The notes: generated by a model from the letters alone, not told the origin. Positions 42,135 through 56,168 are shown, numbered from the stretch's first letter. The stretch: DNA of 64,000 nucleotides from a virus (IMGVR_UViG_3300016667_000484:1-64000); one strand, 5' to 3'. Translations and numbers: made by a program.

Positions 42135-42211
42135 TGGTGCCCTTGGTCGGACTCGAACCGACACTTTCCGGAGTTTGAAGCCGGTGACTCTACCAATTGG
42201 CCTACAAGGGC
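42135..42211 (-). tRNA. class-I tRNA with leucine anticodon CAA (a UCA reading cannot be excluded)
   Basis: Acceptor GCCCUUG/CAAGGGC, A73, short variable loop, D region UAGGCCAAUUGGUAGAGUC. Anticodon region CCGGCUUCAAACUCCGG. The best 7-nt loop is UUCAAAC. Confidence 0.55.
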
Positions 42212-42213
42212 AA

Positions 42214-42480
42214 TTACTTGTCGAGCTGTTTCAGCACTTCTCGTGCCTTCTCTCGGAAGTCGGCGTCAGTGACACCTTCTTCGTCGACTTTGTTCTTGAG
42301 CGTATATTTGATGCCTTCGTATCGATACAGTGCTTCTTCCATCGCCGAAGCATGGAACTGAATCCGTTCAATCGCAGCCGGAAGCATCGAGAAGTCATGT
42401 GTAACAAGCATCTTACGAAGGTATTCGAGTTCAGTGCAGATGTAGCGATCAACGTTGATCGTGTACGGTACTTTCGACAT
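42214..42480 (-). CDS. hypothetical protein
   Basis: Start moved to MSKVPY (RBS GAGGATGAG) so it does not overlap the tRNA at 42500-42576. Confidence 0.5.
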   Translation of the reverse strand: MSKVPYTINVDRYICTELEYLRKMLVTHDFSMLPAAIERIQFHASAMEEALYRYEGIKYTLKNKVDEEGVTDADFREKAREVLKQLDK

Positions 42481-42499
42481 CTCATCCTCATTTTGAAAT

Positions 42500-42576
42500 T
42501 GGTGCCCATGGAGGGACTCGAACCCCCAACATGCGCGTTCTAAGCGCGCCGACTCTACCAATTGGCCTACATGGGC
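42500..42576 (-). tRNA. class-I tRNA with leucine anticodon TAG
   Basis: Perfect anticodon stem GCGCG/CGCGC with loop CUUAGAA. A73, short variable loop AUGUU. Confidence 0.7.
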
Positions 42577-42581
42577 ATGTC

Positions 42582-42656
42582 TGGTAGTCCGTGACGGGAT
42601 CGAACCATCGACCTTCTCCGTGTAAAGGAGTTGCTCTACCGCTGAGCTAACGGACC
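42582..42656 (-). tRNA. tRNA-Val(TAC)
   Basis: Anticodon loop UUUACAC, acceptor with G1.U72. Confidence 0.7.
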
Positions 42657-42663
42657 ATTATTT

Positions 42664-42737
42664 TGGCGACCGTGAAGGGAATCGAACCCTCAACCTCGGA
42701 TAGACAATCCGGTATGATACCACTTCATCACACGGCC
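42664..42737 (-). tRNA. tRNA-Asp(GTC)
   Basis: Anticodon loop UUGUCUA, G73. Confidence 0.7.
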
Positions 42738-42752
42738 AATTTCTTATTCAAT

Positions 42753-43022
42753 CTACACCGAATCTTTGTCGGTGTCAACCACCTTTTTCAAGTAGTCGTA
42801 AACTTCTTCGTAAGAGTAGAAGACCTTAGTTCCTTGCTTGCTCGCGACTCGTACGGTTGAGCCGAAACATTGCACAAGACCAAAGCCTGGGAATCTACCG
42901 TTACCTTTGATCCTTGCGTTCCAGCGTGTGCGGCGACGAACAGGATCGTGGAACTGATGCTCTATGTTTAAGATCGAGCTCACAGTGTCATAGAAGACAC
43001 GTTTCTCATCGTTTGTTTTCAA
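42753..43022 (-). CDS. hypothetical protein
   Basis: 89-aa ORF. Confidence 0.5.
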   Translation of the reverse strand: MKTNDEKRVFYDTVSSILNIEHQFHDPVRRRTRWNARIKGNGRFPGFGLVQCFGSTVRVASKQGTKVFYSYEEVYDYLKKVVDTDKDSV

Positions 43023-43242
43023 TACTCAACTTCTTCTGTTTGATGAAGTTTGCAAGGTCACTCGGTTTAATCTGAAACGAAATGTCCCGGTAACCCGGAT
43101 CATACCACTGTTGTGATCGGTTCACGTGATCGTTACCAACTTCTTCGTTCTTGAACGCTCCGACGTGGCGAATCTTGGTGTGAGTCTTTCCAATGGAATA
43201 CTCAAACACTTGACCATCTACTTCGAGCTTACGATACGACAT
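43006..43242 (-). CDS. hypothetical protein
   Basis: 78-aa ORF. Confidence 0.5.
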   Translation of the reverse strand: MSYRKLEVDGQVFEYSIGKTHTKIRHVGAFKNEEVGNDHVNRSQQWYDPGYRDISFQIKPSDLANFIKQKKLSIENKR

Positions 43243-43275
43243 TACAAATCTCCTTACGGGTGACTAGGCGTTGTG

Positions 43276-43349
43276 CCTATGAATTTGGAGCGGGTAACGG
43301 GAATCGAACCCGTGCGTTCTCCTTGGCAAGGAGGTAGGCTACCTCTACA
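43276..43349 (-). tRNA. tRNA-Gly(GCC)
   Basis: Acceptor GCGGGUA/UACCCGC, loop UUGCCAA, U73. Confidence 0.75.
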
Positions 43350-43354
43350 TCATA

Positions 43355-43430
43355 CCCGCATTAATGGTGGACCCTGTCGGGATCGAACCGACGACCTGAA
43401 GCTTGCAAAGCTACTGCTCTCCCATCTGAG
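43355..43430 (-). tRNA. tRNA-Ala(TGC)
   Basis: GGGCUCUUAGCUCAG with a G3.U70 pair, loop UUUGCAA, A73. Confidence 0.8.
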
Positions 43431-43601
43431 CTAAGAGCCCGTATTCGTTGACCAGAGGGGTGTGAGTCGCTATGCTCAGTGACCGTTTCTCTGGCCTTAT
43501 TCGACCGGAGGGGGACCTATTCCCTCGCGGTGAGTAGTGAGTGCGTATCCTTCAAAGACATAAGGTCGATAGTCTCTGGACAGTGGGACTTCACTACTAA
43601 T

Positions 43602-43691
43602 TGGCGGAGACGGTGAGATTCGAACTCACGGAACGCTTTCACGTTCGGCCGCTTTCAAGGCGGCAGCGATAGACCACTCTGCCACATCTCC
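43602..43691 (-). tRNA. tRNA-Ser(TGA)
   Basis: Type II. Anticodon stem GCCGC/GCGGC, loop CUUGAAA, G73. Confidence 0.75.
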
Positions 43692-43693
43692 AG

Positions 43694-44047
43694 TTATTTC
43701 TTCTTGATATTCCTAGCTTTGTATGTATCAAGTTGTGAATCACAGTTAGAACACACAAATCTTAAATTATCAAGACGATTATCATTATGAACACCGTTTA
43801 TATGATCAAGAATCAGAGGCATTGGTTTGCCATTCCATTCTGGTCCAATAGCGCAAATCGCGCATCGGTATTCTATCATGTTGTTTTGAATTATTCGCCT
43901 TTTCAGATTATGCCTAGCATATGTACTGTTTTCGACGAATACTTCATCATCAGTAAGTTTGATACCGTAACCATTCACCTTAGTGCCGGCACCTCTTGGT
44001 GGAACTTTCTTGCCTTTGTTCCAAGGTATCGAACCTTTAGATGTCAA
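43694..44047 (-). CDS. HNH homing endonuclease
   Basis: LDHINGVHNDNRLDNLRFVCSNCDS is an HNH motif. It sits between tRNAs. Confidence 0.7.
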   Translation of the reverse strand: MTSKGSIPWNKGKKVPPRGAGTKVNGYGIKLTDDEVFVENSTYARHNLKRRIIQNNMIEYRCAICAIGPEWNGKPMPLILDHINGVHNDNRLDNLRFVCSNCDSQLDTYKARNIKKK

Positions 44048-44063
44048 GTTACGTCTCCATATT

Positions 44064-44140
44064 TGGTTGCGGTGGGCAGGAATCGAACCTGCGTAATCGG
44101 CTTATGAGACCGTGCTGGAACCACCTCCAGTCTACCCCGC
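44064..44140 (-). tRNA. tRNA with anticodon CAT (Met or Ile2); acceptor pairing imperfect
   Basis: D-arm CUGG/CCAG, anticodon loop CUCAUAA, T-arm GCAGG UUCGAUU CCUGC. The acceptor has 2 mismatches. The shared motif ATTTTTGCGGGGTA lies at its 5' end. Confidence 0.5.
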
Positions 44141-44264
44141 AAAAATCGCCCGGTTTGTTTCTTCGTCCTCATGCGGTCTATTCGGCCCGCGAGCAACTAC
44201 CTACCAGCCGGAACTGGCGATTCTGTTTTGAGCGATACACCACCTCCAAGGTAACAACCGAGCC

Positions 44265-44375
44265 ACTAGTGGCGCAGGAGGGAATCGAACCCTACTTGAT
44301 GTATCCGTCAAAACAGAATTTCTGCGATTCTGTTTTCAGCTACATCAAGTGGACTACCACAAGCAATTACGCCAC
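44265..44375 (-). pseudogene. tRNA-like element interrupted by a long AU-rich hairpin
   Basis: T-arm-like AGGGUUCGAUUCCCU and a 3' CCA, but the body contains the nested hairpin CUUGAUGUA[GCUGAAAACAGAAU-CGCAGAA-AUUCUGUUUUGACGGA]UACAUCAAG. Confidence 0.4.
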
Positions 44376-44430
44376 CCAATGTTTCCCCACCAGGTTTTGA
44401 TGTATGTGAAAACAGAATTTCTTCTGTTTC
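44295..44430. repeat. recurring AAACAGAA-loop-TTCTGTTT hairpins
   Basis: aaaacagaatttctgcgattctgtttt at 44301-44329 and gaaaacagaatttcttctgtttc at 44408-44430. Related copies at 54807-54820, 54898-54922, 40901-40910 and 40985-40995. Confidence 0.5.
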
Positions 44431-44526
44431 TAAGTTTTCAAAGAACGTTGAGGTTTACCACCTCATGTATCCTATTTATACCATCTACTGAGCAATGTCA
44501 ACAACTTTTTTCGTCAGGATCGCTTT

Positions 44527-44590
44527 TTTGCCGCGGATTTGAACCGCACACTTTTCTTGGAAGGAAAATGCTCTACCGTTGAGCTATGCA
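44527..44590 (-). pseudogene. tRNA-like pseudogene (intact D-arm, anticodon arm with UCC, T-arm; acceptor stem disrupted)
   Basis: GCUC AACGGUA GAGC / UUUUC CUUCCAA GAAAA / UGCGG UUCAAAU CCGCG. No pairing acceptor and no CCA. Flanked by the repeated motif atgcaatttt(t/g)ttgctg. Confidence 0.4.
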
Positions 44591-44617
44591 ATTTTTTGCT
44601 GAAACGATCCTATAATC

Positions 44618-44995
44618 TTATAGGCTCTTGCCCGCGATGTCTTTCATCGCCATGTCGATCTTGTACACACGCTTCAGAGGAAGAATAGCACAACGAGTGG
44701 TGTCAGTGTACTGCCGAGTCTTGTAGTTGTACGACTTAGAAGGAACACCATCAACACGAACAGCTTTGACGTACTGCTTCATCTCGTGCTTAACGTTACC
44801 CTTTTCGTCTCGAATGTATTGACCATTCTCGTCTTTCAGATAGTGACGACCAATCGAGTAGTAAACGCCAGCGAACTTGCCAGTCCGGACTCGAACACTG
44901 TGACCGTAGCCGGTGCCAACATAGACGACTTCATCACCCGGTTGAATGGTCTGCCCGAGTTCGTTAGTAAATGCTTCTGCGACCAGATCGGCCAT
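44618..44995 (-). CDS. hypothetical protein
   Basis: 125-aa ORF. Confidence 0.5.
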   Translation of the reverse strand: MADLVAEAFTNELGQTIQPGDEVVYVGTGYGHSVRVRTGKFAGVYYSIGRHYLKDENGQYIRDEKGNVKHEMKQYVKAVRVDGVPSKSYNYKTRQYTDTTRCAILPLKRVYKIDMAMKDIAGKSL

Positions 44996-45301
44996 GTGAT
45001 TCTCCGTTGTTCATGATGTATATTCAGGTTGGTTGGTTACTTGTTTGTTGCCTTACCATTTGGCTATCTACGCAAGAAGCGTGGAATCGGATTCGAACCG
45101 ATAATACACAAAGTGTGTAAGTTTGCTGAACCCAACCTATATTCTTTCTGGATCAACTTTTTTGCTACGTGTGCATCTGTTACACCAATGCCCCATAGTG
45201 AAATTGGTGGGGCACCTAGGATTTGCACCTAGACCACGATCTCCGAATGATATGCAATTTTGTTGCTGTAATGATCCAATATTCGTTAGGCTATGCCGCC
45301 G

Positions 45302-46744
45302 TTAGACGGCATAGCGATCCTTAAGCAGAGTCTTCAGCATTACGTTGTAAGGCGTGAACTCTTCGAGGTCGTTCGCAAGGACCGACTTCATGATGGCAGG
45401 CGAGAAGCCCGAGACCAAGCAGACACCCTTGTCGTCGAAACGAACCGGAGTGTTGCTGTCGCCGTAAGGAGACAGGTTCCAGAAGACGATCTTCGGCACA
45501 GCGTAGCCGGCCTTAGCGTACTTCCGAGCAATCATCTCCTGAGCGGAGTCATCGTAGCGAACGCAGGAGTTGAACTGCATGTCCGAGAGGATCAGCAGCA
45601 TCTCCGGCATGTCCTCTTGCGAGACCTTGCCCTTGATTGCGATGTCGAGCAACATGTCGAACGCTGCATGCAGGTTCGTGCTACCCGCGACGATCTCAGG
45701 GATCGACTTCAGACGCTGAGTCAGCGAGCCCTTAGGCGTAACCAACTTCGGAGTCGAGTCGAAGATCATCATGAGGTCCTTGAAGTTGGACGTGTTCTTT
45801 TCAGAAACGTACAGACCCAGACCCAGTGCGACCTCGATAGGCTGAGGAGCACCGTTACCACCACGGTTCATACCGTAACGGTTGAAAGGCATGTAGCCCA
45901 TCGAACCAGAGGTGTCGACGATCGGGAAGATCTTCGCGTTACCGACGAAGTTAGGCAGAGCCTTCCACTGCTCGTCAGCAACAGCCGAGTTACCATTCGT
46001 CACCGAACGGATAACGTCGTACGGATAGACCGCACCAGCGTTGATCTTGACCTTCACGGTACGCTCAGCCTCAGGCTTCTGCAGCTCACGAATGTAAGCC
46101 GAGTAAGCTTCCTTAGCGTTGCGGCCGAAAGCCTTCTGATAGCGAGCCGATGCAACCGAAGGAACATGCGAGAAGTTAATCTCGTTCCAGTTCTTGGCAC
46201 ACATCTGGGTCTCGACGACCGAGGTCAGTTCGACAACCAGCTTACGATAAGACTTTGGCGACAGGCCGAGGAACTTGGTCAGTTCGACTGCGACTGGACC
46301 CTTACGAGGCATCCACTTCGCGCAGAGGCCGTTCTTGTCTTCGATGAGAGCCTTGCGGATCATCTCGAAAGCAGCCTTGCGGTTGAAGTGCTCGGTGTAG
46401 GCGAACAGGTCGTCCCAACGGCCAAGCTCAGGAATGCGAGCCATCAGCTTACCAGCGGTAGCAGGGTTCAACGTTTCCAGCTTCGACAGAAGGTTGCGGA
46501 ATTGAGCACGCTCACCGGCACCTTCGCGAATGTCGCGAGTCCACAGAAGAGCACGCAGTGCGTGCTCTTCGTTTTCGGCCAGAGCCGAGAGGAATTGATC
46601 GGTCATATCCTTACCACGGTAAGAACCGACCTTGCCGAAGAAGTCCAAGACTGCCGATGCCGAAGTAGCACGGGCCTTCATACCATTCGCGGTACGAGCA
46701 GGAGCTTCATTCTTGTAGTTGAGGGCTGCGTTTGCAAAAGACAT
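45302..46744 (-). CDS. vWA-domain protein (DUF2828 / Ro60-TROVE-like architecture)
   Basis: MIDAS motif IVDTSGSMGYMP in the C-terminal half and a long alpha-rich N-terminal half. 480 aa. tRNA-like motifs lie in its 5' leader. Confidence 0.7.
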   Translation of the reverse strand: MSFANAALNYKNEAPARTANGMKARATSASAVLDFFGKVGSYRGKDMTDQFLSALAENEEHALRALLWTRDIREGAGERAQFRNLLSKLETLNPATAGKLMARIPELGRWDDLFAYTEHFNRKAAFEMIRKALIEDKNGLCAKWMPRKGPVAVELTKFLGLSPKSYRKLVVELTSVVETQMCAKNWNEINFSHVPSVASARYQKAFGRNAKEAYSAYIRELQKPEAERTVKVKINAGAVYPYDVIRSVTNGNSAVADEQWKALPNFVGNAKIFPIVDTSGSMGYMPFNRYGMNRGGNGAPQPIEVALGLGLYVSEKNTSNFKDLMMIFDSTPKLVTPKGSLTQRLKSIPEIVAGSTNLHAAFDMLLDIAIKGKVSQEDMPEMLLILSDMQFNSCVRYDDSAQEMIARKYAKAGYAVPKIVFWNLSPYGDSNTPVRFDDKGVCLVSGFSPAIMKSVLANDLEEFTPYNVMLKTLLKDRYAV

Positions 46745-46852
46745 AGTGTATTCCTTTCTGGTTGGATTTACGGATTCGAACCGCTAAGTTTGTTTACAAG
46801 ACAAATTGGGAACCATTCCCGGTTTTTTGTTGCTGAAACCAACCGTTTAGTT

Positions 46853-47329
46853 TCAAGATTTAGATCTACCTTTACGAAAATTTTCTGGAATTGGATCAGT
46901 AGATCTTATTGATTTGGTGATCACACCATCAGTTATCCAGATTCTGCCCGATGATGCTTTATTGCCGATAGTACCTTTAGCAAATGTATTGCCTCTATTG
47001 CCTATCATGTGGCTATTTCCAATCAGATAGGAATAATCGATATTCTTACTGGCGTCTCCACCGTTTACGGCATTCTCCTCTATCAGATTTGCCCATTCAC
47101 TTGAATTGACTATATCATTGTTTTTAGAGAATGTCAAGGCAAAGTCTTTAGCCTCTTCAGTATTTTGATACTCTGCGATAACAACTGTATCTATGTCGTA
47201 CCCATGAACTTTAAGGTGTGCTTTCCAATACTTACCGCTTCCACGATATTTGTATGGATCACGAACAGTCTTGCCAAAATACTTCAGCTTTGTGACGCGA
47301 TGCGTCTTTACGTACAGATAAATAGTCAT
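46853..47329 (-). CDS. GIY-YIG homing endonuclease
   Basis: MTIYLYVKTHRVTKLKYFGKT...YKYRGSG is a paralogue of the 24145 gene. RBS gggag. TATAAATA at 47394-47401. Confidence 0.65.
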   Translation of the reverse strand: MTIYLYVKTHRVTKLKYFGKTVRDPYKYRGSGKYWKAHLKVHGYDIDTVVIAEYQNTEEAKDFALTFSKNNDIVNSSEWANLIEENAVNGGDASKNIDYSYLIGNSHMIGNRGNTFAKGTIGNKASSGRIWITDGVITKSIRSTDPIPENFRKGRSKS

Positions 47330-47393
47330 ATGCTGGAAACTCCCGTATGTTTCTAGAGCTAGCAGACATTGGCGTGTCGTGGCTAGCACTTTC

Positions 47394-47401
47394 TATTTAT
47401 A
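47394..47401 (-). promoter_or_regulatory. TATAAATA late promoter upstream of GIY-YIG gene 46853-47329
   Basis: Exact octamer on the minus strand. Confidence 0.55.
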
Positions 47402-47534
47402 CGAAAGTTTCATCTGGATGACGTTTGTCAGCTACTACAAATTATCAGTTTGTTGCTTGAGTTATTTGCGGAAGTCATCCAATTTTCTTCATAGTCTCAA
47501 TCTATACTAAGTTTGTATAGATGTCAACCACTTT

Positions 47535-48101
47535 TTACCAAAATGACCAAACGAGATAATCACCATCATGTTCGTTTGGATAAGGCAAGTGGTCGTAGTC
47601 TTCGTCCTTGAGAATCTTCTTCTCAAGGCGACGATTGCCAAGGCGAGTGACCTTAGCAGCAGCTTCTTTAAAACCAGTCTTCCAACCAGTTTCGCTCCAG
47701 TGACCGTCACGAGTGAACTTACGGTACTGAGTCTTCAGATCGTCGATCTCTTGTTCAATCGACCAAGGAATATCGACACGATGGTAGCGGCTGACATGAG
47801 GACGATGAATGTATTCGACATACATCGTGCGCTTACGTTCACACCAACTCCAGCCGTACTTCCAAGTATAAGGACGACCGTATTGATCGTACTCAGCCTT
47901 CTTCAGTTTTTCTTGGTATTCATCCCAAGCTACTTTGTATTCAGCTTCGTATTGATCTTCAGGCTTCTTGCGACGCACATACTTAGTGCTATAGTTGTCG
48001 CCTTTGTTCCAGCGACGATAGCGACTAGCGAGTTGACGCTTGATGTAGGTGTCTTCGTTCTCCTCAATGAGATGAAGAGGTTTACGATACGTACGAGACA
48101 T
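47535..48101 (-). CDS. hypothetical Trp/Tyr-rich basic protein
   Basis: 188-aa ORF. Confidence 0.5.
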   Translation of the reverse strand: MSRTYRKPLHLIEENEDTYIKRQLASRYRRWNKGDNYSTKYVRRKKPEDQYEAEYKVAWDEYQEKLKKAEYDQYGRPYTWKYGWSWCERKRTMYVEYIHRPHVSRYHRVDIPWSIEQEIDDLKTQYRKFTRDGHWSETGWKTGFKEAAAKVTRLGNRRLEKKILKDEDYDHLPYPNEHDGDYLVWSFW

Positions 48102-48174
48102 TTAGTTCTCCTTCTAAGGTGAATACCCTAGAAGTCGTCGTAAAACTTTCGATAGTGCATCTCGTGCCCTTTCT

Positions 48175-48366
48175 TTAAGCGGCGTTAAGGCGCCGAACTT
48201 CACCTTCGCGGATGTCTTTCATCGCGCGGAAGTAACCTTTGGTGTTGGCTTTTTCGATTTCGTTGAAGATGATTTTTGCAAGATCTTCAACACCGCAGAG
48301 AACACCGTTGTTGTCGGTGTAGTTCTCAATCATCACAACGATTTCTTCGCGAGTCATGTCGAACAC
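48175..48366 (-). CDS. hypothetical protein
   Basis: 63-aa ORF. Confidence 0.5.
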   Translation of the reverse strand: MFDMTREEIVVMIENYTDNNGVLCGVEDLAKIIFNEIEKANTKGYFRAMKDIREGEVRRLNAA

Positions 48367-48390
48367 CTTTTGTTTTCCGATAAGTAATAT

Positions 48391-48570: not shown

Positions 48571-48585
48571 AACCACTCCATGATT

Positions 48586-48669: not shown

Positions 48670-48775
48670 ATGTTCTTTGAGCGACCTAACAGACGATCTG
48701 AATGGGCATCGGCTTACGCCTGAAGGTTCCTGGTTTGTCGCTCGCTACTACGAACCTTTTTTCGCATTATATTTA

Positions 48776-49703: not shown

Positions 49704-49708
49704 GTAAA

Positions 49709-50128: not shown

Positions 50129-50143
50129 ATGTCAACTACTAAA

Positions 50144-50217
50144 TGGTGCTCCTAGAAAGAATCGAACTTTCTTCTCACCCGTACCAAGGGCGTGTAATAC
50201 CAGTATACTATAGGAGC
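50144..50217 (-). tRNA. tRNA-Thr(GGT)
   Basis: Anticodon stem CGCCC/GGGUG, loop UUGGUAC, A73. Confidence 0.75.
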
Positions 50218-50222
50218 GTTGT

Positions 50223-50296
50223 TGGTGTTCCCAGGAAGAATCGAACTTCCGCCTTCTCCATGTCACGGAGGTGAGCTACCATTACACCATGGGAAC
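50223..50296 (-). tRNA. tRNA-Val(GAC)
   Basis: Loop GUGACAU, A73. Confidence 0.6.
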
Positions 50297-50328
50297 ATAA
50301 ATACTTATACATCACAAGGAGGAGTCAC

Positions 50329-50688
50329 ATGCGTAAGCTACTCTTTGTCCTTTTAGTTATGTGTACGCCAGCTTCGGCTGACATCCGTGAGTGGGACACA
50401 GAAACTAAAATCCAGTTCGGCATATCAACAGCGTTGATAGTGTCTGACTTCATCACCACACGATATGCGATGCATCATACCGATCTGGTAGAAGCTAATC
50501 CAATCTTAGGCAAATACCCTTCAGACGCTGAACTCGCGGCGTTTACCGCCTTAAGCATCTATGGCAACTACGTAGCGTATGACCGTCTCAACGAGAAGCA
50601 AAGAGTTTGGTACTTCATCGGAAGCAGTCTTATACGTGGATGGGTAGTCAACCACAACATCAATCTTGGAGCACAGCTTAAGTTTTGA
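50329..50688 (+). CDS. secreted protein (signal peptide)
   Basis: RBS aaggagg. N-terminal MRKLLFVLLVMCTPASA. It is on the plus strand inside the minus-strand tRNA island. Confidence 0.55.
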   Translation: MRKLLFVLLVMCTPASADIREWDTETKIQFGISTALIVSDFITTRYAMHHTDLVEANPILGKYPSDAELAAFTALSIYGNYVAYDRLNEKQRVWYFIGSSLIRGWVVNHNINLGAQLKF

Positions 50689-50690
50689 AT

Positions 50691-50767
50691 TGGTCCCGCG
50701 TACGAGTTTCGAACTCGTTTCTCCGGCTTGAGAGGCCGGCGACCATCGCCAAGTAGTCCTACGCGAG
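50691..50767 (-). tRNA. tRNA-Glu(CTC)
   Basis: Anticodon stem CCGGC/GCCGG, loop CUCUCAA, T-loop UUCGAAA. Confidence 0.7.
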
Positions 50768-50768
50768 T

Positions 50769-50844
50769 TGGTGCTTCTGTGAGGAGTCGAACCTCATCAT
50801 CGACGGTTATCGGCCGTCTGCCTTTCCGATAGACAGTCAGAAGC
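50769..50844 (-). tRNA. tRNA-Ile(GAT) variant with C32-C33
   Basis: Standard 76-nt numbering fits. Stem GACGG/CCGUC. The loop CCGAUAA has C where the near-universal U33 should be. Confidence 0.55.
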
Positions 50845-50849
50845 GTTAT

Positions 50850-50926
50850 TGGTCCCCCAGAAGGGTTTCGAACCCTCTTCTCCGACTTGAAAGGCCGGCG
50901 ACCATCGCCAAGTAGTCCTCTGGGAG
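50850..50926 (-). tRNA. tRNA-Glu(TTC)
   Basis: Paralogue of the 50691 tRNA, with loop CUUUCAA. Confidence 0.7.
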
Positions 50927-50986
50927 TGATGAATTTCAGGGGCATGATTGCTTTGAAATGCCGAAGCCCAGCGGCATTGGGGTTAT

Positions 50987-51070
50987 TGGTGGGTTACCTT
51001 GGAATCGAACCAAGCGTGCTTTTCAGCGACGGATTTACAGTCCGCTGCCTCACCTTGAGGCGTGTAACCC
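50987..51070 (-). tRNA. tRNA-Tyr(GTA)
   Basis: Type II. Anticodon stem GCGGA/UCCGU, loop CUGUAAA, A73. Confidence 0.75.
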
Positions 51071-51075
51071 AATCT

Positions 51076-51150
51076 TGGTGGTGCTGGGTGGAATTGAACC
51101 ACCGACATAGGGTTTATGAGACCCCTGTTCTACCCCTGAACTACAGCACC
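51076..51150 (-). tRNA. tRNA-Met/Ile2(CAT)
   Basis: D-arm GUUC AGGGGUA GAAC, loop CUCAUAA, G1-C72 paired so elongator-type. Confidence 0.7.
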
Positions 51151-51156
51151 GTTATT

Positions 51157-51247
51157 TGGTGGGAGAAGGGTCGAGTTGAACGCCTTGCCTTTGCAGGGAA
51201 TGGTTTACAGCCACCCGATAGGACCGCCTATCCTTATTGCATCTCCC
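51157..51247 (-). tRNA. tRNA-Tyr(GTA)-like, 91 nt, atypical
   Basis: Loop CUGUAAA and long variable arm, but the D region forms a 6-bp hairpin (GGAUAGG-CGGU-CCUAUC) and the T-stem is imperfect. Confidence 0.4.
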
Positions 51248-51248
51248 A

Positions 51249-51322
51249 TGGTGTTCCTACAAGGTAACGATCCTTGGTCTCTCGCTTATCAGGCGAGTGC
51301 TCTACCTTTGAGCTATAGGAAC
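51249..51322 (-). tRNA. tRNA-Ile(GAT)
   Basis: D-arm GCUC AAAGGUA GAGC, anticodon stem CUCGC/GCGAG, loop CUGAUAA, T-loop variant AUCGUUA. Confidence 0.7.
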
Positions 51323-51392
51323 ATGTTAATCTACTTCTACAACAGTCGAAGACGAATGTCAACAACTATTTTCATACTGCTTGGGAGACACG

Positions 51393-51425
51393 TACGGGAA
51401 TCGAACCCGTCGTTCTAAGAAGAGT
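51393..51425 (-). pseudogene. partial duplicate of the tRNA-Cys 3' end (T-arm plus acceptor 3' strand)
   Basis: gggagacacgtacgggaatcgaacccgtcgtt almost repeats gggagacacacacgggaatcgaacccgtttgc at 51427-51458. Confidence 0.6.
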
Positions 51426-51429
51426 AGGG

Positions 51430-51510
51430 AGACACACACGGGAATCGAACCCGTTTGCTTGCGCAGCTTTAGTTTTGCAGACTAACCCCTTACCGGTCGG
51501 GCAGTGTGTC
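51430..51510 (-). tRNA. tRNA-Cys(GCA)
   Basis: Anticodon stem UUAGU/ACUAA, loop CUGCAAA, U73. The acceptor can extend to 10 bp. The variable region is unusually long (about 13 nt). Confidence 0.6.
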
Positions 51511-52116
51511 TCCGTACTTTTCTTTCCACAATTCAATTTCAGTTAGAAGTTGTTCTAGACTAATTGAAGAATTGCGGTTCTTCCTTGCATTATCAGTTTG
51601 TAATACTAGTTGGCAATTTGCCGGATGAGAAATGATTTTAGGATCAACCATAAGTGTAAACCCATCCTTCACCGATAGTCGATGATCACGTGATATACCA
51701 TTCAAGTTATTCCCACGATTTGAAGCAGAATACCAACCATTAGATTCCACTAAGCAAAGATCAAAGTAGTCCGGATAATCATACACATTAAAGATAAACC
51801 TACAGTCTAGCTTATATGCTTGATACGCTTCCATGCCGATTCTACGAAATTCGTCAAAACATTCTTTACAGCAAAACTTCTGTGATTTTGTCTTGAACGT
51901 GGAACCACAGTTAAGGCAATCAACCACATTGTATTCATGTTTTCTGTTGGCATTGCCGATATGCCTATTCGCAATCAATACCGAAGATGAATTTTTCGCA
52001 GAAAGCGATTTCTTTAACCTATCTTCTGGTGACCATGATCTTGAATTTGCACATTTACGCGAGCAATACACTCCGGACTTATCATGGATTGTATTGCACT
52101 TCGGACAAGTTTTCAT
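51490..52116 (-). CDS. HNH endonuclease with N-terminal Zn-finger pairs
   Basis: CPKCN / CSRKC / CLNCG / CCKEC zinc-finger pairs, then ISRDHRLSVKDG...HPANCQLVLQTDNARKN HNH motif. TATAAATA at 52139-52146. Confidence 0.65.
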   Translation of the reverse strand: MKTCPKCNTIHDKSGVYCSRKCANSRSWSPEDRLKKSLSAKNSSSVLIANRHIGNANRKHEYNVVDCLNCGSTFKTKSQKFCCKECFDEFRRIGMEAYQAYKLDCRFIFNVYDYPDYFDLCLVESNGWYSASNRGNNLNGISRDHRLSVKDGFTLMVDPKIISHPANCQLVLQTDNARKNRNSSISLEQLLTEIELWKEKYGDTLPDR

Positions 52117-52138
52117 AATCGAACTCCTCTAATATCTC

Positions 52139-52146
52139 TATTTATA
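52139..52146 (-). promoter_or_regulatory. TATAAATA late promoter upstream of HNH gene 51490-52116
   Basis: Exact octamer on the minus strand, then RBS gaggag. Confidence 0.55.
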
Positions 52147-52161
52147 AGAGTTCAATCTTTA

Positions 52162-52237
52162 TGGTGGGTGGTGTTGGTTACGATCCAACCTCTCATGCTT
52201 TTCAGGCACGCGCTTTCACCAGATTAGCTTACCACCC
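52162..52237 (-). tRNA. tRNA-Phe(GAA)
   Basis: Anticodon stem CGUGC/GCAUG, loop CUGAAAA, T-loop variant AUCGUAA, A73. Confidence 0.75.
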
Positions 52238-52304
52238 AAATAAGTGCTAGCCACGGGTTTGCCTGCTAGCAGTAGTAAGAGTCTCTTACCTTCTTACCAC
52301 AATG

Positions 52305-52375
52305 TCAGGATGGCGGGAATCGAACCCACGCCGGAAGCTTCCAAGGCCGCCACGCTACCACTACGCTACATCCTG
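52305..52375 (-). tRNA. tRNA-like gene, anticodon ambiguous (TGG/Pro-like)
   Basis: Good acceptor CAGGAUG/CAUCCUG and T-arm. The anticodon stem is weak. 71 nt. Confidence 0.35.
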
Positions 52376-52454
52376 TTTATGTGTTTGGCTCTACCCCAGT
52401 GCGTGAGGGTGACTTAGCTGCTATTCGCCGTAGCAGTACCGTGAATGTGTTTTG

Positions 52455-52534
52455 CTCGGTCGGCTGGGATCGAACCAGCGCCATATTGGGCTTCCGATTA
52501 ACAGTCGGGCGCATTACCACTCTGCCACGACCGA
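52455..52534 (-). tRNA. tRNA-Asn(GTT), second copy, with long variable region
   Basis: Loop CUGUUAA. The acceptor can extend to 10 bp. The variable region is about 13 nt. Confidence 0.5.
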
Positions 52535-52552
52535 GCAAAACACACTTTTGTT

Positions 52553-52628
52553 TGGCTGTCCCTCGTGGACTCGAACCACGGTTTCCTGTTTCAGAGACAG
52601 GCGTCCTACCGGCATAGACGAAGGGACA
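52553..52628 (-). tRNA. tRNA-Gln(CTG)
   Basis: U1-A72, G73, anticodon stem CCUGU/ACAGG, loop CUCUGAA. Confidence 0.75.
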
Positions 52629-52634
52629 ATATAT

Positions 52635-52709
52635 TGGCTGGGAAGGGTGGATTCGAACCACCGGCCTCCTGATTCAAAGTCAGTTATTCTACCGCTGAAC
52701 TACTTCCCA
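52635..52709 (-). tRNA. tRNA-Gln(TTG)
   Basis: U1-A72, G73, loop CUUUGAA. Confidence 0.75.
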
Positions 52710-52716
52710 ACATCTT

Positions 52717-52791
52717 TGGTCCTGGCGGTTGGTTACGATCCAACTCTACTGAGTCCACAGCTCAGTGTGCTACCATTATCACTACACCAGG
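52717..52791 (-). tRNA. tRNA-His(GTG) with A73 and no templated G-1
   Basis: Anticodon stem CUGAG/CUCAG, loop CUGUGGA. 3' end ...CGCCAGG-A-CCA. The genomic nucleotide at -1 is U, not G. Confidence 0.7.
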
Positions 52792-52797
52792 ATATTT

Positions 52798-52873
52798 TGG
52801 TGAACCAGGTGAGACTCGAACTCACGTTGTCGCGGATTAAGAGCCCGCCGCTAAACCCCTCAGCTACCGGTCC
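52798..52873 (-). tRNA. tRNA-Lys(CTT)
   Basis: Loop CUCUUAA, A73. Confidence 0.7.
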
Positions 52874-52961
52874 ATATTCATTACTTGGAAGATACACTCT
52901 ATGCTTCGAGAAGGATCACAGATCCTATCAGCAACTAGTACGGAGAGTATCGTCAAAGTAA

Positions 52962-53037
52962 TGGAGGGCCGAGTGGGACTCGAACCCACGTACTCCGATT
53001 AAAAGTCGGGTGCTAAAACCACCTCAGCTACCGGCCC
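52962..53037 (-). tRNA. tRNA-Lys(TTT)
   Basis: Loop CUUUUAA, U73. Confidence 0.7.
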
Positions 53038-53140
53038 ATTCCTGTCTCAGCGCCATCTTATCATCGCGGCGTTGAGCTTTCTTGCTCTTCTCGTGCACAC
53101 CTGAACCACGCTTGTTGATCAGGTGTTGGACGAAAGGATT

Positions 53141-53320
53141 ACGAGCTTTGGGAAGCTCCTTTTGTTTTCGCTTCATCTTCCTTCTCCATGAACTCTACGG
53201 TCATCTTACCGTCAGGCCATTGCTTGAGTTGCTTCATCCAGTAACGGTAGACACCATAGCCGCGATGAACTTTGTTGAGGTAACTCAGGTTTCCGGTGTG
53301 TATCAATCTTTGTTTCATGA
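53141..53320 (-). CDS. small hypothetical protein (59 aa)
   Basis: MKQRLIHTGNLSYLNKVHRGYGVYRYWMKQLKQW. A second, 50-aa basic ORF at 53024-53176 overlaps it out of frame, has a strong RBS (GGAGAAGGAAG) and runs into tRNA-Lys. Confidence 0.35.
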
Positions 53321-53396
53321 TTACTTCTACAACCGTTCTTGCCCGGTGTCAACCGTTATTTTCAACTTTTTTGAAAATTTTACAGAACGATTGAAG

Positions 53397-54200
53397 TTAT
53401 CTAGCCGCGATGTACCCGGTAGAAGTAGAGTTTACGTTTCCGTTGTTGAAGTTTGAAACACAGTCTACAGGTGTCACGCTAGCAGGATTTTGTATGTACA
53501 TATACAACCGTATTGCGTTGTTGCCATCGGTGTAATCAAGAATCGTCGACGTAGTCGGACTAAATGTCCCGCTTATGCCAGTACTCCAACTTCCCATGAC
53601 TGATACAGCGATTGTCGTTGCGTCAGCTTCGGCTAATGAAGTAGTGATAGTGTATGAAGGAGAATTGTTGATGCCGGCATATGATCCAGTGTCGACGGAT
53701 GTTGTGCTTCTTATGTCTCTCGATGGTCTTAAGATATACACTGCATACAAGCCACCAGAATTTACACTCCATCCACTTATTGTAGCGCCACTTTCGTTAC
53801 CTGTGGCCAGCGCATAAGACAGACTTGTGCCAGAGCTGCTATATAGTCCGTTATCGTTTCCCGCATAAGAAATCATCCTGAAGCCAGATCCAACTTCAGT
53901 TGGACTTGAATCACTAGCTCTCCATCCGACTATGATGATGTCGCCAAGTTTGATTCCGGTCGGCATTACTATTGAACCCGTGCTTGATCCAGTCTTTGAC
54001 GCAACTACACTAAAGTTAATCGCGTTCGCTGTTCCATAGAACATACTTAAAGACAGAGTGCCACTTGTTGGTATAGCTGTCACTGTTCTGTCTACAAGTC
54101 CAGCATTTCTATAGTAATCATTTAACTTAGTTGGAATCGATCCACCAAACTCAGATCTTAAGTCAGAAAGGGATATAGCACCGGTCGATGGTAAAGGCAT
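53397..54200 (-). CDS. Ser/Thr/Gly-rich protein (possible structural or fibre-like protein)
   Basis: 267 aa of low-complexity S/T/G-rich sequence with beta-rich repeats. Confidence 0.5.
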   Translation of the reverse strand: MPLPSTGAISLSDLRSEFGGSIPTKLNDYYRNAGLVDRTVTAIPTSGTLSLSMFYGTANAINFSVVASKTGSSTGSIVMPTGIKLGDIIIVGWRASDSSPTEVGSGFRMISYAGNDNGLYSSSGTSLSYALATGNESGATISGWSVNSGGLYAVYILRPSRDIRSTTSVDTGSYAGINNSPSYTITTSLAEADATTIAVSVMGSWSTGISGTFSPTTSTILDYTDGNNAIRLYMYIQNPASVTPVDCVSNFNNGNVNSTSTGYIAAR

Positions 54201-54318
54201 ATTTGATCACCTATTGGATTGTTGATGATCACAATTAGTCTTAGTGATGCATCAGAGTTGTGAAAGTATTTATATAGGTGATAGTCGTGTATAATTTCAT
54301 CTTTCCATAAATATTCGC

Positions 54319-54807
54319 ATGAAAAGAATCTTACCGTTACTCATTCTGCTCGGGTGTTCGAGTCACGTGACTCTTCACCGTGTCATGCCACCCCTGTCGC
54401 CGGTTGATACCGCAGCGGCTATGGTTGGCCTTGATGAACACTCATCGAGAGAACAGATTCACAACCTTATTGGTGTTGATCCTGTATCTTATCAATGGTG
54501 TGCGGCGTTTGTCAACTCAATTCTGAAGCTCCATAACATACCCGGATCAGAAACTGTAAGCGAACATCCATTGACTGCTCGTAGCTTCTTGAAGTGGGGT
54601 ATGCCGGTTTCAGAACCACGACTCGGAGACATAGTAGTCTTCGAACGCAATGGTAATGGTTGGCAAGGCCACGTTGGTTTCTATATCGAGACGACCGTCG
54701 TAGAAGGTGTCCCAAGTTACGTAGTCCTTGGTGGAAACCAAAACAACGAGATAGGATACGATACGTATCCGATCTCAAGGTTGCTTGGAATCCGAAGACT
54801 ACCCTGA
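54319..54807 (+). CDS. lipoprotein with NlpC/P60- or CHAP-like Cys-His peptidase domain
   Basis: Lipobox LLILLGCSS. YQWCAAFV supplies the Cys and GHVGFY the His. Confidence 0.6.
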   Translation: MKRILPLLILLGCSSHVTLHRVMPPLSPVDTAAAMVGLDEHSSREQIHNLIGVDPVSYQWCAAFVNSILKLHNIPGSETVSEHPLTARSFLKWGMPVSEPRLGDIVVFERNGNGWQGHVGFYIETTVVEGVPSYVVLGGNQNNEIGYDTYPISRLLGIRRLP

Positions 54808-55056
54808 CTCTGTTTTCAACTGCACAATCACGAATCGAACGTGTTTTCTTGTCACTGACTATATAGTCCACTACCCAGTAGCTACAATGGGTTATTGTGC
54901 ATGTGAAAACAGAATCGCTTCTGTTTCCAGTTCCATCATCGGGCATCCCCTAGGAACAAAGCTTAAATTTTCAATGAGCTGGGATGATTGATACGATCTC
55001 TTCGATCCCGAGTTTTTCTTCTATACTAGATCGACACGAATGTCAACCGTTATTTT

Positions 55057-55132
55057 TGGAGGGCTGCGAAGGACTCGAACCTTCATACACCGATTTGCGG
55101 TCGGCCCCGTAACCAGTTCCGAACAGCAGCCC
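55057..55132 (-). tRNA. tRNA-Cys(GCA) variant with C32-C33
   Basis: Acceptor GGGCUGC/GCAGCCC, U73, stem GCCGA/UCGGU, loop CCGCAAA. Confidence 0.55.
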
Positions 55133-55408
55133 AAATGGAAAACCCCTCCGAGACTTTCGTCTGGAGGGGTTGGTTTTCTCTAACCATGTACACCTGGCGT
55201 TAGCCGACGTACCCCCTCATGTTCATAATATTAAGCTGTTCACCGCGCATAATAAAGCGATAGCAAGGTAGTACCTGCTTATGCTTTACGACTGATGCGC
55301 TAGTGGGTTTCATTGAAGGAGAATCCTTGGTTAGTTTGTTCTGTTAAGACTATTTATACACTGGTTTCGGAAGATGTCAACAAAAAAGTGCGCTTTTCCG
55401 AAATTTTT

Positions 55409-55852
55409 TCAGGCAGAGAATGCCTTCAGTTGCCATGCCATCTTCTCGTGCCAGTCGATACGATCCTCGAGGTAGTTCACGAGACCATACTGCGAGTACT
55501 TCTCTGCGAGAGTGTGAGCGGCGTTGAGTTCTTCGAGAAGAGTGTCGTTGTCTGCAGCCAGACGAGCGATCATCGAGAGAGCATCAGGGATGTTGAGCTC
55601 ATCTTGAATGTGAGTCAGAGACATGAAGCGAGACAGCGAAGCTGGAGCAAATGCACCAAGTGCGCGGATGTGCTCAGCGATGTCGTCGATCGATCCGTGA
55701 ACTGCGTCGTAGTAATCACCGATGAAGTCATGGTACTGTGCGAAGTTTGGACCAGTGACGTTCCAGTGGAATCCGTGGGCTTTAAGATATAGGGTGAATG
55801 CCGACGCCAGTACGACTTTCATCTGATCAACAAGTTGTTCCATTATACTCAT
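55409..55852 (-). CDS. dps: Dps (ferritin-like DNA-binding protein)
   Basis: FTLYLKAHGFHWNVTGPNF is a Dps signature. TATAAATA at 55881-55888. Confidence 0.85.
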   Translation of the reverse strand: MSIMEQLVDQMKVVLASAFTLYLKAHGFHWNVTGPNFAQYHDFIGDYYDAVHGSIDDIAEHIRALGAFAPASLSRFMSLTHIQDELNIPDALSMIARLAADNDTLLEELNAAHTLAEKYSQYGLVNYLEDRIDWHEKMAWQLKAFSA

Positions 55853-55880
55853 CCTTATGGTTGTTGGTTGATTGTACGAG

Positions 55881-55888
55881 TATTTATA
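55881..55888 (-). promoter_or_regulatory. TATAAATA late promoter upstream of dps
   Basis: Exact octamer on the minus strand between tRNA-Met and dps. Confidence 0.5.
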
Positions 55889-55891
55889 TGT

Positions 55892-55967
55892 TGGTGCTCC
55901 CGGAGGGACTCGAACCCACGATCAAGGCGTTATGAGCGCCCGGCTTTAGCCGCTAAGCTACAGGAGC
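55892..55967 (-). tRNA. tRNA-Met/Ile2(CAT)
   Basis: D-arm GCUU AGCGGCUA AAGC, anticodon stem GGGCG/CGCCU, loop CUCAUAA. Confidence 0.7.
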
Positions 55968-56091
55968 ATACGTCAATATCCTGGTTGGTAGAAGTGCTTG
56001 GAGTTGAACCAAGTCGAGAACGCTGATCTGGCGCTAGAAGGTTTATAAGGCCTCCCTGTGTACCGACACCCACTTCCACAAAGCAGGATAT

Positions 56092-56168
56092 TGGTGCCCC
56101 CGGTCGGACTCGAACCGACACTGTAGAGATTTTAAGTCTCCTGCCTCCTGCCGTTGGGCTACGAGGGC
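56092..56168 (-). tRNA. class-I tRNA with leucine anticodon TAA
   Basis: Acceptor GCCCUCG/CGGGGGC, A73, anticodon stem GGAGA/UCUCU, loop CUUAAAA, short variable loop. Confidence 0.6.

Follow-up and report, generated by a model that had tools for sequence, protein, structure and literature searches.

The window, that is, the whole 64,000 nt stretch of viral DNA analysed here, contains a tRNA array on the minus strand (36057..56249) comprising 42 tRNAs called by ARAGORN and two further matches seen with Rfam only. Calls were made with ARAGORN and with the Rfam RF00005 covariance model at its gathering threshold of 29 bits. The array holds all six leucine tRNA genes: five with a short variable arm (type I), 75-77 nt long, all on the minus strand and found by both of these independent tools, and one canonical type II gene. 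All six scored above the gathering threshold, the type I genes at 42.1-57.9 bits and the type II gene at 56.4 bits. An earlier sequence-only reading of this DNA had described five class I tRNAs with A73 and variable loops of 4-5 nt, whose anticodons (CAA, UAG, CAG, GAG and UAA) together read all six Leu codons, and both programs confirmed this; automated folding called the five as leucine tRNAs with the same anticodons. The loci had also been placed correctly, apart from the CAG tRNA, which starts at 49551 by ARAGORN (49552 is the end of the Rfam match), and it can be added that the genes lie on the minus strand.

The genes as parsed by ARAGORN are given here with their Rfam score and their score against R1, a covariance model of the type I family built without the window or its relatives. 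The tRNA-Leu(CAA) gene (42135..42211, minus strand; 77 nt; 53.3 and 84.9 bits) encodes CCA, and its sequence reads GCCCUUG UA GGC CAAUUGGUAGA GUC A CCGGC UUCAAAC UCCGG AAAGU GUCGG UUCGAGU CCGAC CAAGGGC A CCA. The tRNA-Leu(UAG) gene (42500..42576, minus strand; 77 nt; 57.9 and 87.3 bits) has CCA and A37, and the tRNA-Leu(UAA) gene (56092..56168, minus strand; 77 nt; 56.1 and 77.9 bits) has CCA and the D-loop CAACGGCAGGA. The type I tRNA-Leu(GAG) gene (49627..49703, minus strand; 77 nt; 54.1 and 78.7 bits) also has CCA, and its anticodon loop is UUGAGUA, with U37. The tRNA-Leu(CAG) gene (49551..49625, minus strand; 74 nt plus C; 42.1 and 71.3 bits) has no encoded CCA, its 3' end reading GGCAC followed by AUA, and carries U8-G9, the D-stem AUG/CAU and the T-loop CUCGAAU (C54). 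The normal type II tRNA-Leu(GAG) that the sequence-only reading had noted at 48586 was recovered by ARAGORN at 48586..48669 (minus strand; 84 nt; 56.4 and 50.4 bits), in agreement with Rfam. It has U8-G9, G13, a 12-nt variable arm, G37, CCA and a D-arm with a 3-bp stem and a 10-nt loop.

The five type I tRNAs share a 7-bp acceptor stem, a 5-bp anticodon stem with each anticodon following U33, a standard T-arm and A73. Their variable loops of 4-5 nt end in U48 (AAAGU, AUGUU, (G)UCCU, AAGUU and ACAGU in the ARAGORN parse), and a long variable arm, taken as a stem-loop of at least about 10 nt, is absent from all five and is found only in the tRNA at 48586-48669. In every one the D-arm consists of a 3-bp stem (10-12:23-25) and an 11-nt loop, C13-A14-A15-Y-U-G18-G19-N-A-G-A, with 13:22 unpaired, and U8-A9 is present in the four tRNAs other than CAG. 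The D region UAGGCCAAUUGGUAGAG is common to three of the five, as had been stated; parsing it as a 4-bp stem with two mismatches was considered and dropped in favour of the 3-bp stem and 11-nt loop, which is the ARAGORN parse and agrees with the family covariation. Minimum free energy folding of the single tRNAs was uninformative: the D regions did not fold as in a cloverleaf and the z-scores were weak, which is normal for tRNAs. By ARAGORN, no other class I tRNA within the window combines the Leu-type D-arm with A73 and U48. Read from the sequence, the architecture of the five genes is that of a bacterial tRNA-Leu, with its D-arm, elbow and discriminator, from which only the long variable arm has been removed.

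A GIY-YIG/NUMOD3 homing endonuclease gene (48824..49495, minus strand; Pfam SegE_GIY-YIG, and phrog_314 at 1.5e-49) is flanked by the type I CAG and GAG genes on one side and by the type II GAG tRNA on the other, the latter lying 154 nt downstream. According to Pfam and PHROGs, the ORFs embedded in the array encode only homing endonucleases, a ferritin-like protein and proteins without assignment. Two kinds of RNA ligase, Rnl1-like and Rnl2-like, are encoded in the window as well, as is a Ro/TROVE protein; no gene for LeuRS or any other synthetase was found within it, and its longest ORFs are 599 and 549 aa. The same array includes an amber-suppressor tRNA(CUA), which is the closest non-member to the type I family and has A73, A15 and U48, and which might therefore be a derivative that inserts leucine. 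Searching GenBank phages by megablast with the tRNA region gave no match, so there is no close cultured relative. The nearest homologues of the ribonucleotide reductase (RNR) are in alphaproteobacterial phages, a weak pointer, and the Leu(UAA) tRNA resembles genes of Nocardia and Gordonia. The window belongs to a large uncultured phage with a near-complete tRNA set and comes from a Logan assembly of SRR6423793.

Orthologues of the tRNAs in related contigs are 92-99% identical, compared with 73-84% for the flanks, and the differences are compensatory, which argues for selection on the fold. The CAA orthologue (contig L049) is 93.5% identical, with two fully compensatory changes in the T-stem, and those of the UAG tRNA (L086, L049, L074 and L061) are 92-99% identical, with compensatory anticodon-stem changes in L061. 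The UAA tRNA is about 91% identical over 55 nt to a chromosomal tRNA-Leu(UAA) of Nocardia, and its synteny with Arg(UCU) is kept in L105. No orthologue of the CAG, type I GAG or type II GAG tRNA was present among the related contigs compared.

A search pattern that leaves the anticodon free, GTAGNCCAAYWGGYAGAGNC-N27-30-GTTCGA, matched more than 119 viral contigs and at least 120 cellular genome stretches. Among the matches listed, Leu anticodons were found in 120 of 123 viral and in all 119 cellular cases. The coupling is also seen from the other side, as the combination of Leu-type D-arm, A73 and U48 characterizes 141 of the 172 short Leu tRNAs but only three of the roughly 950 tRNAs of other isotypes at the same loci. 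Across 245 unique family members A73, A14, A15, G18, U55, C56 and A58 are invariant, U48 is present in 99%, A9 in 94% and a conserved C.A mismatch at 13:22 in 95%, and the D-stem is 99.3% paired. For 100 independent members, 98.5% of cells are paired (65% when shuffled), with double changes at 19 of 20 pairs and covariation at all three D-stem pairs. Against R1 the five type I tRNAs score 71.3-87.3 bits, compared with 57.1 for the best non-member tRNA and 50.4 for the type II Leu tRNA.

The viruses that carry the family include T5-like and FelixO1-like coliphages, KVP40-like phages, mycobacteriophages and jumbo phages. In Actinomycetota it is present as single chromosomal genes, with tRNA-Leu(CAA), (UAA) and (UAG) matching the anticodon-free pattern; no Streptomyces genome was among the at least 120 cellular matches listed. 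A BLAST search of 5,426 E. coli genomes (28 Gb) with family members found no close member, a null that, for so short a query, excludes close members only. In an approximately unbiased viral sample, 11 Leu tRNAs had a short and 38 a long variable arm, compared with four short and 68 long for Ser and Tyr combined (p = 0.0096), as would be expected if loss of the arm is tolerated only where the synthetase can do without it. By this sample, roughly one viral tRNA-Leu gene in four is type I and three in four are type II. Complete sets of all five type I anticodons were found in the window and in three other large viral contigs (L024, L008 and L112). The exceptional status given to the five genes by the sequence-only reading was therefore overstated, given this frequency, the native occurrence in Actinomycetota and the complete sets in other huge phages. 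The family is widespread, in many phages and on actinobacterial chromosomes, yet rarely discussed.

Leucine identity in E. coli depends on A73, A15:U48, G18G19, A20a and U8:A14, and the long arm is dispensable (PMC9976931). The sequence-only reading had argued likewise, from A73 and tertiary contacts, and A73, U8:A14, A15:U48 (the Levitt pair), G18G19 and a D-loop of Leu type are present in all five type I tRNAs. As bacterial LeuRS ignores the anticodon, and as the E. coli determinants exclude the long arm, charging by the host LeuRS is the most likely outcome. We consider it highly probable that the five genes encode functional-type tRNAs of the conserved type I family which are leucylated in this way. 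The sequence evidence, namely the retained determinants and the coupling of architecture to Leu anticodons, gives good support to the proposal that they are true Leu acceptors with an unusual architecture. With leucine attached, the CAA tRNA would decode UUG, UAA would decode UUA/UUG, UAG would decode CUA/CUG and possibly more, CAG would decode CUG, and GAG would decode CUC/CUU. Together they would supply leucine decoding within a near-complete tRNA set by which the phage keeps its genes translated; Leu accounts for 7.9% of codons. We infer that the five are expressed, leucylated by the host LeuRS and of benefit to the phage.

Charging by an arbitrary host LeuRS is nevertheless not guaranteed, since the LeuRS of M. 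tuberculosis is reported to contact the long arm (PMC3561953). The type I tRNA-Leu(CAA) of Streptomyces coelicolor is leucylated by its own LeuRS, a normal bacterial enzyme, with U8:A14 being important, and by human mitochondrial LeuRS, but it was not charged in vitro by E. coli LeuRS (PMC6614811). This poses a puzzle, as E. coli LeuRS rejected the Streptomyces tRNA and yet coliphages carry family members, one of them being the T5-like phage DaisyDussoix, which grows on E. coli K-12.

The sequence-only reading had also raised the idea of charging with another amino acid, here taken to be the work of some synthetase besides LeuRS, through which Leu codons would deliberately be read otherwise during infection. 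Anticodon and identity are separable in principle because LeuRS does not read the anticodon, and the amber-suppressor tRNA(CUA) is evidence of manipulated decoding in this phage group. The sequences themselves speak against it. For alanine, G3:U70 is present in none of the five and C3:G70 in all; for serine, a long arm with G73 is absent throughout, the discriminator being A73, and C2:G71, which acts against E. coli SerRS as an antideterminant, is present in four of the five (PMC9976931). By the rules in the same source, the Leu anticodons exclude those anticodon-reading synthetases that accept A73. Conservation of A73 in 100% of the family, retention of the Leu-type D-arm, the family's role as native single-copy Leu isoacceptors in Actinomycetota and the experimental leucylation of the S. 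coelicolor tRNA (PMC6614811) all argue the same way. When the phage ThyA was compared with PDB 3ix6, each of the six Leu codons aligned mostly with Leu (20 L-L matches), so that phage Leu codons match conserved leucines and recoding is not supported; it can be considered most improbable. Partial decay, under which the CAG and type I GAG tRNAs would be impaired or decaying and the type II Leu(GAG), possibly having arrived with the GIY-YIG endonuclease, would decode CUY, deserves more weight, although it too seems doubtful. Only three of the five have both T54 and a purine at 37, and the CAG and type I GAG tRNAs are atypical members: C54 and U37 are each unique among the 245, U37 being the only pyrimidine at that position. 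With C54 and no CCA in one and U37 in the other, at positions otherwise invariant in the family, both may work poorly. The CAG tRNA scores lowest of the five with both Rfam and R1, CUU and CUC make up 52% of Leu codons, so that the quality of the GAG tRNA is important, and the type II version of it has G37 and lies close to the endonuclease gene; the lack of orthologues of all three among the contigs compared also fits. However, both tRNAs keep perfect stems, A73, A14, A15, G18G19 and U48, and score 71-79 bits with R1, and many family members have no encoded CCA. The same layout, all five type I genes together with one type II GAG gene, recurs in the unrelated L008 and L112, which suggests that it is kept by selection and is not decaying.

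The loss of the arm could itself be adaptive if it hides phage tRNA-Leu from a factor that recognises the long arm of host tRNA-Leu, be it a nuclease of the host's antiviral defence or an enzyme with which the phage shuts off its host. A complete type I set, still chargeable by the host LeuRS, would then let the phage translate once host tRNA-Leu had been destroyed, and in infected cells the reading of Leu codons would pass from the host's type II tRNAs to those of type I brought by the phage. Infection by T-even phages cleaves a host tRNA-Leu, which lends the idea some plausibility, as do the four complete five-anticodon sets and the window's RNA ligases and Ro/TROVE protein, these being tRNA repair or quality-control functions. 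Close members of the type I family were moreover not found in the E. coli genomes searched, yet T5-like and FelixO1-like phages of E. coli carry the family. Against this, no nuclease specific for the long arm of tRNA-Leu was found in this analysis or in the literature searched, many phages keep type II Leu tRNAs, and Actinomycetota have the architecture natively, with no need to invoke a conflict of this kind. Neutral loss of a dispensable arm fits the data equally well, and we regard the adaptive explanation as unlikely. Leucylation by the host LeuRS, as ordinary members of an existing family, remains the preferred reading of the five window tRNAs, and nothing points to recoding.

The family matters because it occurs in model coliphage groups whose host lacks close members and as a native chromosomal isoacceptor across Actinomycetota. 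It is a natural system for asking how bacterial LeuRS enzymes cope without the arm and whether its loss benefits phages, and it may interest designers of compact or orthogonal Leu-type tRNAs. Within the literature searched, discussion of a bacterial type I tRNA-Leu is confined to the work on S. coelicolor (Fan et al., NAR 2019, PMC6614811); candidate surveys had nothing on the subject, and no paper comments on the short architecture in cultured phages.

Canonical type II tRNA-Leu, as in the E. coli isoacceptors and at 48586-48669 in the window, has the same anticodon set, A73, U8:A14, A15:U48, G18G19 and 3-bp D-stem as the type I tRNAs, and in both the D-loop is 10-11 nt, ends in AGA and is nearly the same in sequence (xAAUUGGUAGA). 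They differ in the variable region (a stem-loop of 12-17 nt in type II, 4-5 nt in type I), at position 13 (G in type II, C in type I) and at position 9, where type II has G and type I has A in four of the five and in most of the family, the CAG tRNA keeping G9. Animal mitochondrial tRNA-Leu likewise has a short variable loop, with A73 and A14 as identity elements (PMC9976931), but these tRNAs are reduced, AT-rich, often with non-canonical D/T loops, and are served by a dedicated LeuRS, whereas the phage type I tRNAs have fully canonical elbows and bear no sequence relationship to them. The tRNA-Leu(CAA) of S. coelicolor resembles the window genes in its Leu anticodon, its short variable loop and its coexistence with type II tRNAs, and it is assigned to this exact family by inference from other actinobacteria; the S. 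coelicolor LeuRS does not use A73 as an identity element (PMC6614811), and only one isoacceptor of that species is type I, in contrast to all five, phage-borne, in the window. The same architecture and signature are found in DaisyDussoix, Shigella phage Sf19 (FelixO1-like), Vibrio phage 1.081.O (KVP40-like), the Sinorhizobium jumbo phage Phosso, Bacillus phage P59, Myxococcus phage Mx1, Pseudomonas phage phiPsa374 and cluster C mycobacteriophages. In these cultured phages the short genes are annotated in GenBank as tRNA-Leu (by ARAGORN or tRNAscan-SE) and lie in arrays interspersed with homing endonucleases. Most have one to three type I isoacceptors, and Phosso has four type I anticodons in the stretch examined, whereas the window has five together with the type II GAG tRNA.

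ARAGORN called 42 tRNA genes in the window between 36057 and 56249, every one of them on the minus strand, and six of these are tRNA-Leu genes. Five are of the short, type I form, with the anticodons CAA (42135-42211), UAG (42500-42576), CAG (49551-49625), GAG (49627-49703) and UAA (56092-56168); each is 77 nt long with the exception of the 75-nt CAG gene. The sixth is an 84-nt type II tRNA-Leu(GAG) at 48586-48669, and all six exceeded the gathering score of the Rfam tRNA model. The sequence-only reading had described five short tRNA-Leu genes with these anticodons and a normal type II Leu(GAG) at 48586; ARAGORN re-called them, Rfam agreed, and the observation was correct as a whole apart from the strand. 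The A73 and the 4-5-nt variable loops that it reported were seen in all five gene sequences, and the D region UAGGCCAAUUGGUAGAG in three of them. CCA is encoded in four of the five.

The five are folded by ARAGORN with a 3-bp D-stem (GGC/GUC, GGC/GCC, GCC/GGC or AUG/CAU), which rules out a 4-bp stem for the shared D region, and with an 11-nt D-loop of the form C13 A14 A15 Y U G18 G19 N A G A. A 3-bp D-stem is likewise present in the type II Leu of the window, whose D-loop has 10 nt, GAAUGGUAGA. As the last base of the variable loop is U in all five, A15 is able to make the A15:U48 Levitt pair. Where type II tRNA-Leu has G9, four of the five have A9 and only the CAG tRNA retains G; C13 is found in place of G13. 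None of the window's other class I tRNAs has the Leu-type D-arm together with A73 and U48, and the five are in effect tRNA-Leu minus its long arm.

This architecture is under selection across the family of type I tRNA-Leu. Among 245 unique aligned members, stems are paired in 89-100% with four to seven pair types per position, 13:22 is a conserved C.A mismatch, and U8, A14, A15, G18, U55, C56, A58 and A73 are invariant. An independent set of 100 members was drawn up, from which the window and all sequences with 85% or more identity to it were left out. In this set 98.5% of cells pair versus 65% when shuffled, both-side changes occur in 19 of 20 pairs, and the covariation score is 0.893 versus 0.211, a signal that was gone when partners were slid by 1-3 columns. 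A covariance model built from the 100 returned the five as its top matches in the window (71-87 bits), followed by an amber-suppressor tRNA(CUA) at 57 bits, other tRNAs at no more than 52 bits and the type II Leu at 50. Orthologues of the CAA, UAG and UAA genes are kept across related contigs (L049, L086, L074, L061 and L105), and those of CAA and UAG are 92-99% identical whereas the flanking DNA is 73-84% identical. The differences between orthologues are compensatory, at two T-stem pairs (CAA) and two anticodon-stem pairs (UAG), and the Leu(UAA)-Arg(UCU) synteny is common to the window and L105.

Two of the five are atypical. The CAG tRNA has no encoded CCA and carries C54, the sole case among the 245 members, and the type I GAG tRNA has U37, the only pyrimidine at that position in the same set. 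Their genes neighbour each other, beside a GIY-YIG homing endonuclease gene and the type II GAG tRNA, and both tRNAs may be impaired. Homing endonucleases are scattered through the tRNA array. In three unrelated phages a type II tRNA-Leu directly adjoins a homing endonuclease gene: in the window (GIY-YIG, 48586-49495, minus strand), in Ochrobactrum phage vB_OspM_OC (HNH, L002 10386-11011) and in the T5-like phage DaisyDussoix (putative, L368 11294-11980). The pattern is a hint that homing endonuclease elements either carry type II Leu genes along or target them.

Two readings had been proposed for the five, that they are genuine Leu acceptors or that they are charged with another amino acid and deliberately recode Leu codons. 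A 2023 review (PMC9976931) gives A73, the A15:U48 Levitt pair, G18G19, A20a and U8:A14 as the determinants of tRNA-Leu identity in E. coli, where neither the anticodon nor the long arm is needed and minimal tRNAs without the arm are charged all the same. Each of these determinants is retained in the five; M. tuberculosis LeuRS, however, reportedly touches the long arm (PMC3561953). For recoding, the five have no G3:U70 and so no Ala identity, no long arm with G73 and so no Ser identity, and their Leu anticodons exclude the anticodon-reading synthetases; by established identity rules, LeuRS would therefore be the only plausible enzyme to charge them. In the phage genes, Leu codons have their standard meaning. 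An alignment of ThyA with PDB 3ix6 placed all six Leu codons mainly opposite Leu (20 L-L matches), which also speaks against recoding. Leu makes up 7.9% of 5,475 codons, and CUU and CUC together account for 52% of Leu codons, a share that fits the two GAG tRNAs in the window. The retained determinants, together with the coupling of the family to Leu anticodons, thus support the five as probable Leu acceptors; the recoding reading is not supported.

That coupling was determined with a scan pattern of the D-arm and a short spacing to the T-loop, in which the anticodon was left free. More than 119 IMG/VR contigs matched, and among the matches listed 120 of 123 viral tRNAs have Leu anticodons (UAG 50, UAA 39, CAA 17, GAG 9, CAG 4, AAG 1). 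The other three listed have the Asn anticodon GUU and an acceptor of Asn type (U1...G73) but combine these with the whole Leu-type D-arm and a variable loop of 5 nt, and are apparent chimeras (L010 13037-13113, L082 387-463 and L101 6781-6857). Of 172 short Leu tRNAs in the same loci, 141 have the Leu-type D-arm together with A73 and U48, versus 3 of ~950 non-Leu tRNAs.

Genes of this kind, ~77 nt long, are annotated as tRNA-Leu in unrelated phages in culture: Sinorhizobium jumbo phage Phosso (where one stretch holds five short genes with four anticodons), Ochrobactrum vB_OspM_OC, Bacillus P59, Myxococcus Mx1, Rhizobium RHph_I1_18, a KVP40-like Vibrio phage and the Pseudomonas phiPsa374 group. 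All five type I anticodons are also complete in viral stretches L024 (from a 448-kb contig), L008 and L112, the last two with one type II Leu(GAG) each, which is the exact configuration of the window. A tmRNA gene with the tag peptide ANDNALVPMQMAA lies inside the tRNA array of L008, a 235-kb viral contig, at 4531-4882. Viral tRNA arrays were also sampled through a generic non-Leu D-arm, which should be unbiased for Leu type. Here 11-12 unique tRNA-Leu were short versus 38 long (about a quarter short), in contrast to 4 short versus 68 long for Ser and Tyr (Fisher p = 0.0096), indicating that arm loss is specific to the class II isotype whose synthetase needs no arm.

The window belongs to a large phage; its source is a 76-kb contig from an assembly of run SRR6423793, and megablast of its tRNA region against GenBank phages found no close cultured relative. 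It encodes ribonucleotide reductase, ThyA, NAMPT, NMNAT/Nudix and DNA ligase; the closest RNR homologues (57-60% identical) are from alphaproteobacterial phages including the jumbo phages Phosso and Atu_ph07. Upstream of the array are Rnl2-like (3767-4912) and Rnl1-like (6836-7960) RNA ligases, and inside it a Ro60/TROVE-like RNA-binding protein (DUF2828/DUF7788; 45302-46744), all on the minus strand; as a group they resemble a kit for tRNA repair and quality control that accompanies the tRNA set. A ferritin-like protein gene is also inside the array (55409-55852, minus).

Other tRNAs of the array, all on the minus strand, are unusual as well. The tRNA(CUA) at 38607-38682, 'Pyl' according to ARAGORN, has a G1.A72 mismatch, A73, A14-A15 and U48, and may be a Leu-type suppressor as it is the best non-member match of the type I Leu model. 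Genes for tRNA(CUA) with differing sequences are present in the related contigs L086, L074 and L061, and TAG is the stop of only 1 of 15 annotated genes. The Cys-anticodon (GCA) tRNA at 51427-51511 is 85 nt long with a 14-nt variable arm and, as ARAGORN folds it, an 8-bp acceptor stem; versions in related contigs L105 (2354-2435) and L103 have 82 nt, U73 and a 12-nt variable region. As a class II-like tRNA-Cys, it is the converse of the arm-less Leu. The 81-nt tRNA-Asn(GUU) at 52454-52534 has a 13-nt variable region, and long-armed Asn(GUU) recurs in unrelated phages (Phosso, L001 8739-8824, 86 nt; phiPsa374, L007 4242-4324, 83 nt, flagged pseudogene). T-loops of AUCGUAA or AUCGUUA are found in the Ala (39156-39230), Phe (52162-52237), His (52717-52791) and Ile (51249-51322) tRNAs, where A54 and U58 swap the usual T54:A58 reverse-Hoogsteen pair. 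Rfam added two tRNA-like sequences to those of ARAGORN (44527-44591 and 44068-44140), one with a truncated acceptor stem and UCC-type anticodon loop and the other with a CAU anticodon. The family model found weaker remnants at 49712-49790, 45082-45148 and 39590-39669, one of which directly precedes the type I GAG tRNA.

The family consensus is matched by 691 GenBank phage records, including phages of Salmonella (193), Mycobacterium (173), Escherichia (101), Erwinia (34), Streptomyces (31) and Gordonia (18), among others. Two cases were verified: DaisyDussoix, a coliphage of E. coli K-12, carries a 77-nt Leu(UAA) with the signature and an 85-nt type II Leu(UAG), and Shigella phage Sf19 carries three type I genes, which tRNAscan-SE likewise assigned to Leu. 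No close family member was found in 5,426 complete E. coli genomes by BLAST, which detects close members only.

When the anticodon-free pattern was applied to one genome per bacterial or archaeal species, at least 120 stretches matched, and all 119 tRNAs among the matches listed have Leu anticodons. Lone chromosomal genes account for 96 of the 119, most of them in Actinomycetota; the hosts listed include Nocardia, Amycolatopsis, Corynebacterium, Arthrobacter-type genera, Gordonia, Mycobacterium and Acidimicrobiia. A smaller share of the listed tRNAs lies inside tRNA arrays, in Planctomycetota, Myxococcota and cyanobacteria. Among 23 cellular members of the CUN-reading type I tRNA-Leu(UAG), 20 have G at position 37, and about half of the phage versions have A there (29 A, 27 G), as do the UAG and CAG tRNAs of the window; with A37, many phage versions would be no substrates for m1G37 methylation.

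The Nocardia tRNA-Leu(UAA) has the same variable loop, T-arm and 3' acceptor strand as the gene at 56092. The experimental record of type I bacterial-type tRNA-Leu is confined to Streptomyces coelicolor, whose tRNA-Leu(CAA) is leucylated by its own LeuRS and by human mitochondrial LeuRS and is left uncharged by E. coli LeuRS in vitro (PMC6614811). Such tRNAs are abundant yet undiscussed in phage annotations, and textbook-level statements contradict them. The more useful by-product of this analysis is the family-level picture, in which type I genes make up about a quarter of viral tRNA-Leu, are carried by model coliphages without a host counterpart, and are native in Actinomycetota.
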